From the IMG/VR virus record IMGVR_UViG_2737471866_000003: a stretch of 23,513 nt of DNA; one strand, given 5' to 3'. Source of the DNA: a virus. Its lineage: Duplodnaviria; Heunggongvirae; Uroviricota; Caudoviricetes. Positions 583-2,906 of this stretch are shown here, one piece after another. A model generated the notes under the pieces. It was not told the origin of the DNA, did not search any database, and saw only the letters and a list, made by a program, of their open reading frames with translations. The position numbers were made by a program, and so were the translations under genes. The stretch's first letter is position 1; every line of letters starts with the position of its first letter.

Positions 583-2906
583 TATGCAAGCCTCACAATA
601 TAGTTAAATGCAATGTTTTTGACGGTGTTTTCCGCGTTACCCGCAGCGTTAACGGTGATGGTGTGTCCGTGTGAACCAATACTGAAAGAATGGGCATGAG
701 CACCGATAACAACCGGATGCTGGTGCGCACCAATACCAACTGTATGCGCATGTGCACCGGCACTCACGGCTGTACCGGACAATGAGTGACTGTGGCTGCC
801 CTGACTGTCCGTTTTCGATAAATAAGCAATACCCTGTGTGTTGGTTCCTTTAACTGTGGATAAACTTCCTGTAATGGTTGCTGTTCCATACTGACTCCAG
901 CCAGAACTGTTCATCCTTAAACCACTTGTGTGGGCATGAGCACCCGCGGCCCCTGTTGAACCGCTCAGACTGTGAGCATGAGCCCCCGTGTTATTCGTCG
1001 ATTTGGTGCCGTAATCGAAACTGCCTGTTGTTTTCGTCCCGTAATCAAACGACGATGTGGTTTTCGTCCCCAAATCCGTACCGGATGCACTGGCACTGTG
1101 GGTGTGCGACTTAATTCCATCCTGTTCCTGAGACAATACAGCACGACCGCTGGCGGGTTTCCCCTTGATTGTCCAGCCTCGCATATCAGGAAGCACACCC
1201 GATGGATACGCGACAGCAAGTTTTGGGTAGGCTGATTTGTCAAACGCCTGCCCCTGCATCAGGACGTAGCCAGACGGAACGATATCTGATGGCCACGGGA
1301 TCGGCGCACCTGCCGGAAAGGCCGAATTCTCTCCGGCCCCAAGGTATTCAAGAACATCTGCAACGGAATTTTTTGCCAGAATATCCCTGCCAACCTGAGT
1401 CAGTTCAGTCAGGCTGGCGGCATCATTTTCCGCAAAATACGGTAATTTATTTTTCGCCGTGGAAAGCCCTGCCAGCGCCGTCAGTGTCGCATTCTTCGGT
1501 TGTTTACCCGCAAGCGCGTTAGTCATGGTGGTAGCAAAATCTGGATCATTCCCGAGCGCTGCGGCCAGTTCATTCAGCGTATTCAGTGCGTCAGGTGACG
1601 CGTCGATAACATCTGCAATCGCGGCCAGTACAAAAGCGGTGTTCGCAATCTGGGTATTGTTTGTTCCCCTGAGCGCGGTTGGTGCTGTTGGCGTTCCGGT
1701 CAGTGCCGGACTGTCCAGTGGGGCTTTTCTGTTCGTTTCATCCATTACCACCTTAACCGCCTTTGGCGTTGCAGCAAGCGTTTCAGACGTGCTGTTGGTT
1801 GCACTGCTGAGCTGCACTATCCCCTTTCTCGTTGTGTCCGCATCCTCAAGCGCGACAGCTGAAGCTATATCTTCTGCACGTTTTGCCGAATTTTCTGCAC
1901 GTATTGCCGCCGCTTCTGCCGCACTTTTGCTCTGCGATGCTGATACCGCACTTCCCGCAGCCTCTGTCGCCTTCGTGGATGCCGTTGACGCACTCCCCGC
2001 CGCCGCTGTTTTTGCGTCTGCCGCGGCAGAGGCGCTCCGTTCCGCTGCTGTTTCAGATGACCTGGCATTCGTCTCGGACGTGTTTGCCGCCCTGGCAGAA
2101 TTTTCTGCCGCCGTTGCCGAGGAAGCTGCACGACCGGCACTTGATGATGCGTTCGTTTCTGATGATTTTGCTGCCTCTTTTGAGGCCACCGCATCTCGTG
2201 CTGAAGTGGCGGCCTCTGACGCTTTCGTGGCCGCGGTGGAGGCAGACGTGGCGGCTGATTGTTGTGACGCTGCAGCATTCGTTTCTGACGTTTTCGCCGC
2301 ACCGGCACTGGTGGCCGCCGCGTTTTTTGAGGACTCTGCGGCTGCGGCACTTTTTTCCGCTTCAGTGGCCTTTGCTGATGCCGCTTCTGCGCCGGAGGAC
2401 GCTTCCTGAGCTGACGATGCAGCCTGTCCGGCGGACGTGCTGGCGGCGCGTGCTGAGTCAGTTGCATCAGTCACAAGGGCCGCGACCTGAGCAGCTGATG
2501 CACTGGCATCGCCGGCTGATTTCTTCGCGTCTGCCGTACTCTGTGCCACCACGGACGCGTTACGCGCCACCTCTTCCACCATCAGTTCAAGACGACGCAG
2601 CACCTCCGGCCGGGCATCATCCTCCGTCATGGCACAGAGAAAATCATTCAGCGTCCCCGGTTGTGAATCTTCATACACGGTGATGGTCCCGGCGTGCGAT
2701 GGTGGAAAACCGTCAACCTGCAGGATGACACTGTACTGACCGTACTCCACATCCATGCTGTAACGCCCGGCTTCATCCGGATTCTCTGAGCCCACCGTGT
2801 TCACCACCACCGTGGTGCTGTTACGTCTGGCTTTCAGCTGAATGGTGCAGTTCTGTACCGGTTTTCCTGTGCCGTCTTTCAGGACTCCTGAAATTTTTAC
2901 TGCCAT
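582..2906 (-). CDS. stf: Side tail fiber protein Stf, intact single ORF of about 774 aa, with Ala/Ser-rich repetitive shaft and His-rich (HxH repeat) C-terminal tip
   Basis: Track ORF 582..2912 (-), 776 aa, begins at a GTG; the ATG two codons in (2906) gives [20 protein letters not shown]..., the lambda Stf (orf-401) N-terminus as I recall it. The C-terminus has GAHAH / SHSHS / GAHQH / GSHGH repeats typical of the T4 gp37-like fibre tip. An RBS-like GGGGTGA lies upstream of the ATG. Confidence 0.85.

Follow-up and report, generated by a model that had tools for sequence, protein, structure and literature searches.

Likeness of a histidine-rich lambdoid side tail fibre tip to T4 gp37 and a candidate rule for needle length

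The question raised by the locus described here is whether the histidine-rich end of a side tail fibre gene, stf, encodes a metal-coordinating fibre tip of the kind known from T4 gp37, and whether that gene could still specify side fibres. The gene lies in IMG/VR virus record IMGVR_UViG_2737471866_000003, a stretch of 23,513 nucleotides from a tailed virus (hereafter the window, in which all coordinates are given); stf and the adjoining tfa are both on the minus strand. An earlier note on this DNA had drawn attention to the dense H-x-H (HxH) motifs near the end of the encoded protein, Stf. Our analysis indicates that 585-2906 is very probably an intact, wild Ur-lambda-type stf carried by a mosaic lambdoid prophage from a bovine-type Escherichia coli lineage, with a gp37-type tip and, by inference, a metal-bound trimeric fibre. 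The finding is correct, but the homology to gp37, the binding to OmpC, the frameshift in lambda PaPa and the conservation of the HxH motifs are already in print (PMC7291167, PMC12617516), and nothing in it is new. Its value for discovery is low, the gene being Ur-lambda stf with one conservative substitution. Prior publications on lambda stf reportedly include Hendrix and Duda 1992, as cited by others.

The histidine ladder and its likeness to gp37

Judged by alignment, the last ~250 residues of Stf are a close homologue of the receptor-binding tip of gp37, which is made up of a collar, a needle of ascending and descending strands, and a head. When all PDB chain sequences were searched with phmmer, Stf residues 520-776 matched 2XGF over chain positions 17-242 at E = 1.2e-72, with 148 of 226 aligned positions identical (65.5%), and the similarity spans the collar, both needle strands and the C-terminal collar strand. 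Residue numbers for the tip and the HxH motifs are those of a 776-codon open reading frame (ORF) with a GTG start, whereas gp37 numbers are 2XGF chain positions plus 784, a conversion that was checked against the published iron ligands H929/H931; the domain limits in the Stf tip (Table 1) were likewise mapped from those published for T4 gp37 (PMC6957217). All seven gp37 HxH pairs (883, 915, 929, 966, 980, 989 and 998) are aligned with HxH pairs in Stf. Successive motifs are separated by 32, 14, 37, 14, 9 and 9 residues in T4 and by 42, 14, 48, 14, 9, 9 and 9 residues in Stf, which has gained 10 residues in the ascending strand, 11 in the head and 9 in the descending strand. The proposal that the motifs are spaced as in the gp37 tip is thus borne out, in that the two proteins share one ladder, to which Stf adds an extra rung and a larger head. 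Stf 578-774 had earlier been modelled on 2XGF (PMC7291167).

Stf contains eight HxH motifs, at residues 603, 645, 659, 707, 721, 730, 739 and 748, and 16 of its 17 histidines belong to them. The forms quoted in the earlier note are all present, as GAHAH (four times), SHSHS, GAHQH and GSHGH, with SHTHS as the motif farthest upstream. The count given there, at least eight within the last 130 or so residues, needs a small correction: the last 174 residues contain all eight, but only seven lie within 585-1000, the last ~132 residues, and SHTHS (1098-1106) is 42 residues further upstream and outside that interval. Shuffling the whole protein produced a mean of 0.35 HxH motifs and a maximum of 5, while shuffling the last 176 residues only produced a mean of 1.35 and a maximum of 7; in neither case did eight motifs arise in any of 100,000 shuffles. 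Chance falls far short of explaining the clustering. An alignment of 23 sequences (the query and 22 homologues) shows invariant histidines in five of the eight pairs, and the pairs at 659, 721 and 739 are missing from relatives with shorter needles.

Table 1. Features of the stf-tfa region, with limits in gp37 numbering (T4) where these were used for mapping
Feature	Position	Strand	Basis or remark
stf coding sequence	585-2906	minus	774 codons from ATG at 2906; stop TAA 582-584
N-terminal domain, PF08400 (phage_tail_N)	2505-2906	minus	E = 8.7e-75
Site of the lambda PaPa frameshift	1720-1723	minus	window CCCC (...KAPLDSPA...), PaPa CCC; alignment to J02459.1
Collar, N-terminal part (T4 811-881)	1110-1325	minus	PF07484 E = 8.4e-11; 2XGF alignment
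Ascending needle/stem strand (T4 882-931)	930-1109	minus	HxH 1-3; 10-residue insertion relative to T4 at 1017-1046
Head/tip subdomain (T4 932-959)	813-929	minus	11 residues longer than T4; predicted receptor-contacting end
Descending needle/stem strand (T4 960-1009)	636-812	minus	HxH 4-8; extra 9-residue unit 690-716 with the eighth HxH
C-terminal strand returning into collar (T4 1010-1026)	585-635	minus	invariant or nearly so in the 23-sequence alignment
HxH 1-8	1098-1106, 972-980, 930-938, 786-794, 744-752, 717-725, 690-698, 663-671	minus	motif scan
stf stop/tfa start overlap TAATG	580-584	minus	TAA 582-584, ATG 582-580
tfa, tail fibre assembly chaperone	4-582	minus	193 residues, stop 1-3; PF02413 (Caudo_TAP) E = 9e-44

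The intact gene and its prophage

The ORF caller had placed the start of stf at GTG 2912, giving a minus-strand frame of 776 codons over 582-2912. We rejected this start, which adds two spurious codons; the third codon, ATG 2906, which stands just after GGGGTGA, gives the protein the N-terminus MAVKISG found in the Ur-lambda collar chain 9e7m and is, on the sequence, almost certainly the true start. Residues 1-94 match the solved PDB chain 9e7m/9mgh, the collar-forming domain, at 100%, and the Pfam families recognized in Stf are PF08400 (phage_tail_N), PF03406 (Phage_fiber_2), PF07484 (Collar) and PF03335 (Phage_fiber). The relationship to lambda is close at both levels. The Ur-lambda-type Stf (ALA45720.1) of KT232076.1, a lambda record from E. 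coli K-12 CV601 with one 774-residue tail fibre protein annotated, is colinear with the window Stf over 774 of 774 residues and identical at 773, the sole difference being K275N in the Ala/Ser-rich shaft; this is also the sole difference from the Stf of E. coli ARS-C101 (WP_001407643.1). At the DNA level, a megablast of window 1-3000 matched lambda records at 99.7-99.9% over 20-3000, and window 20-5999 is 99.75% identical to KT232076.1.

Laboratory lambda, on the other hand, carries a frameshift in stf that abolishes its side fibres (PMC12617516). The PaPa sequence (J02459.1) represents the same gene at 99.7% DNA identity with one C fewer, so that orf-401 ends in KAHWTVRH and a stop codon and the rest of the gene is annotated as orf-314, which equals the last 314 residues of the window Stf except for N689S. 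This is also the only position at which the head differs from that of PaPa, the head sequence being identical to that of the Ur-lambda type. In the window, a single uninterrupted frame of 774 codons spans the site, where CCCC stands against CCC in PaPa, and there is no frameshift in stf. The earlier view that stf is one intact ORF, unlike that of lambda PaPa, is therefore upheld by its colinearity with the Ur-lambda-type protein. Two plus-strand ORFs that lie under the tip (878-1114 and 972-1235) were set aside as chance frames, the minus-strand frame being near-identical to known proteins. The interval from lom to stf holds a strong terminator-like hairpin at 2923-2944 on the minus strand, immediately ahead of the ribosome-binding site of stf, with 9 pairs, 7 of them G-C, followed by a run of T.

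As expected for a gp37-type tip gene, a chaperone gene, tfa, lies immediately downstream. The coupling of tfa to stf that had been suggested agrees with the TAATG overlap and with a GAGG ~9 nucleotides upstream of the tfa ATG. Residues 1-188 of the window Tfa equal those of lambda Tfa, and the protein then ends in TSPAE (193 residues) where lambda Tfa ends in AVPVME (194 residues). The codons behind this different end occupy window 1-19, and an identical Tfa occurs in bovine E. coli genomes. Tfa has been described as a chaperone that aids trimer folding (PMC7291167), and lambda Tfa is reported to be able to replace gp38 (PMC9659904, PMC7291167). A match to the Rfam family IS009 (RF02111) at 41-239 on the minus strand (223.7 bits) was not accepted as a separate RNA gene; it lies wholly inside the tfa coding sequence and probably reflects tfa-derived sequence in the family seed.

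The locus thus shares with Ur-lambda a 774-residue Stf, its domain order and tip, the intact C run, the TAATG junction, and J and lom upstream, the order being J, lom, stf and tfa in a lambda-type tail-tip module whose J has 1132 codons. What surrounds it is different. Window 20-9591 is 98-99.9% lambda DNA and takes in the H 3' end together with M, L, K, I, J, lom, stf and tfa, whereas 9592-22400, with V, G/T, most of H (a tape measure gene of ~1030 codons) and the head genes, is mEp460-like at ~96% and not lambda. The head genes include a ClpP protease-capsid fusion of 739 residues. The window annotation is right in this respect, as a complete lambda-type tail-tip and side-fibre module has been grafted onto a non-lambda set of head and tail-tube genes.

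Such a graft raises the matter of how Stf would meet its docking partners. The published contacts of the Stf collar are K2, W6 and R80 of gpM and E63 of gpV (PMC12617516). The window gpM is 98% identical to that of lambda and keeps all three residues, gpL is identical to lambda gpL, and gpV keeps E63 within YLDDEDADW. With the published contact residues kept in gpM and gpV, docking of Stf on these two proteins is plausible from their sequences.

The whole of stf-tfa, including the window-type tfa end, is found in nine complete genomes of bovine or farm E. coli, and at least 80% of it in 78 of 5426 complete E. coli genomes (~1.4%). The window as a whole was not found in complete E. coli genomes, where the best coverage was 87%, or in phage records (82%), at ~96% identity.

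Several observations weigh against our reading of the locus as an intact gene for a metal-bound trimeric fibre. First of all, gpV is merely 55% identical to lambda V. Second, Tfa differs from lambda Tfa in its final 5-6 residues, a difference that we attribute to the position of tfa at the end of the prophage: in E. coli ARS-C101, which has an identical Tfa, tfa is the final gene of the prophage, with potB 230 base pairs downstream. Third, a copy of IS3 (~22640-23513), with an rve-type transposase ORF on the minus strand (22683-23498), lies immediately upstream of the small terminase gene and is truncated by the end of the window; the same IS3-terminase junction recurs in several bovine or farm E. 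coli genomes. Fourth, lom (2971-3590, minus) is split into 71 and 135 codons by a break at ~3379-3382, where the window has four G residues and lambda, KT232076.1 and ARS-C101 have five, the difference being due either to a genuine frameshift or to a sequencing error in a homopolymer. Fifth, an AlphaFold2 monomer model of residues 520-776, built on the 23-sequence alignment, reached a mean predicted local distance difference test (pLDDT) score of only 50.8, with the needle and head below 50, a poor result that we ascribe to the intertwined trimer expected for this tip. Finally, that the metal is iron is assumed from gp37.

The third and fourth of these points speak to whether the prophage makes side fibres at all. 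It is possible, though on the whole doubtful, that stf and tfa are intact while the prophage is defective and makes none, the pair then being a recently acquired or not-yet-decayed remnant. The IS3 transposase ORF beside the small terminase gene and the one-nucleotide deletion in the lom G run would fit such a state, as would the lack of any complete E. coli genome or phage record with more than 87% of the window; furthermore, the early, lysis and integration regions fall outside the window. Set against this, the head and tail ORFs other than lom are all long open frames, as judged from the ORF list without reference lengths, and the genes M to tfa of the tail-tip module are 98-100% like those of lambda. 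lom is itself dispensable, its four-for-five G difference may be a sequencing error, and at least nine complete genomes of bovine or farm E. coli have kept the same stf-tfa. For the earlier suggestion that functional side fibres are probably still specified by this prophage, there is evidence on both sides: the intact stf and tfa ORFs and the docking residues speak for it, while IS3 and the frameshifted lom count against it.

A predicted extra rung and the length of the needle

The eighth HxH pair, H739/H741, sits in the 9-residue insertion of the descending strand, and the ascending strand has a matching 10-residue insertion. At the DNA level, traces of rung duplication are seen on both strands of the needle: a 27-nucleotide tandem repeat at 690-758 (2.6 copies, 69% matches) encodes the descending IGxHxHxxx units, and on the ascending strand a GTKTTxSFDY unit is duplicated at 1017-1046.

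Such paired insertions extend well beyond Stf. We surveyed the best 120 homologues from a word index together with the best 150 cluster representatives (P0001-P0264), with tips aligned to window 585-1355, which yielded 157 distinct complete tips. Across these, the first gap between ascending HxH motifs equals, within 1 residue, 12 plus 10 times the number of trailing 9-residue descending units, the classes seen being 22 residues with 1 unit, 32 with 2, 42 with 3, 52 with 4, 62 with 5 and 73 with 6. Only P0207 seems to break the rule, and it too conforms if an incidental additional HDH in the ascending strand is discounted; with P0207 counted in this way the lengths of the two strands match, as the hairpin topology would have it, in 157 of 157 tips. 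Units of 14 residues with an HxH motif occur in equal numbers (0, 1 or 2) on both strands in the architectures tabulated. The surveyed tips have 5 to 10 HxH pairs per chain, and the length of the head gap, 33-70 residues among relatives, varies independently.

A hairpin of paired rungs predicts this coupling of strand lengths, which thus supports a Stf needle that is one rung longer than that of T4 and has eight metal sites. We consider it likely that Stf has eight axial metal sites as against the seven of gp37, and that the gp37/Stf family changes the length of its needle only by complete rungs, that is, by a 10-residue ascending together with a 9-residue descending HxH unit, or by a 14-residue HxH unit on both strands, within a range of 5-10 HxH pairs per chain. 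For Bas63, it has already been suggested that the number of motifs may be proportional to needle length (PMC12609058). The strict rung rule, if true, would be a simple design principle for engineering the reach of fibres, as well as a quick predictor, from sequence only, of needle length and metal-site number in fibre tips for the engineering of host range.

Proposed metal, receptor and attachment of the fibre

Metal binding by the HxH pairs of Stf is something that we infer from homology. The gp37 needle carries seven iron atoms along its length (PMC6957217, PMC11705849), and replacement of either H929 or H931 by alanine leads to loss of plaque formation (PMC6957217). HxH-Fe sites are general in fibres and spikes, where Fe(II) is thought to keep the chains in register during folding and to stiffen the shaft (PMC6116203). 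In the mechanism that we propose, three Stf chains would intertwine, and every HxH level would bring together two imidazoles from each chain, six in all, in octahedral coordination of one buried metal ion, which is Fe2+ in gp37. With eight such ions per fibre, the needle, one rung longer than that of T4, would be held in register and stiffened.

It is unlikely that the HxH pairs hold zinc or some other non-iron metal, or no metal, with the needle stabilised by histidine stacking alone. The HxH site of T4 gp12 did hold zinc in the crystal, maybe as an artefact of preparation (PMC6116203), but the seven iron ligand pairs of gp37 are all conserved in register in Stf at 65.5% identity, iron is found at the HxH sites of gp37, R-pyocin fibres and the P2 and phi92 spikes (PMC6116203), and the alanine substitutions at H929 or H931 of gp37 abolished plaques.

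Translation of Tfa would be coupled to that of stf at TAATG, and Tfa would chaperone the folding of the trimer, the head of which would bind the OmpC trimer reversibly, as in Ur-lambda. OmpC binding, collar formation and homology to gp37 have been reported for Ur-lambda Stf (PMC12617516). Related tips with different heads use OmpF, LamB or lipopolysaccharide (PMC9659904), and the spread of head-gap lengths among relatives noted above might likewise suggest a different receptor here; however, residues 520-774 are identical to the tip of the Ur-lambda-type protein, whose dependence on OmpC is published (PMC12617516), and another receptor is thus very unlikely. At the other end, the N-terminal domains of twelve chains, from four fibres, would form a collar docked at the gpV/gpM junction. 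Such fibres would speed adsorption and be dispensable for infection, in keeping with Ur-lambda, which has four fibres that make adsorption 10-30 fold faster and are not essential (PMC12617516).

That the HxH repeats arose by accident, through composition or low complexity, and lack structural meaning, an idea that could draw on the richness of the tip in Gly, Ser, Thr and Ala and on its short DNA tandem repeats, is hardly conceivable and has already been refuted by the alignment to gp37, by the shuffles, none of which reached eight motifs, by the covariation of strand lengths in all 157 tips, and by the solved homologue 2XGF, which shows the role of the HxH residues. The invariant histidines of five of the eight pairs likewise speak against it.

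By sequence, Stf thus shares with T4 gp37 the collar, the six-stranded needle, the head, seven HxH pairs and a chaperone gene downstream, with OmpC as a common receptor, published for Ur-lambda. The two differ in several ways. First of all, Stf has one rung more (10 ascending and 9 descending residues with the eighth HxH) and a head that is 11 residues longer. Second, the chaperone is gp38 in T4, whereas here it is Tfa. Third, the N-terminal 500 residues of Stf are unrelated to gp37, the fibre being mounted on a siphovirus tail through the collar domain. Beyond these two proteins, the principle that a buried, octahedral metal site is built from one HxH pair of each of three chains is shared with the LTF/STF tips of Bas63, the shaft of the R-pyocin fibre, and the apex of the P2 gpV and phi92 gp138 spikes, although these have one to seven sites, and only the Bas63 tips are sequence homologues of the Stf tip.

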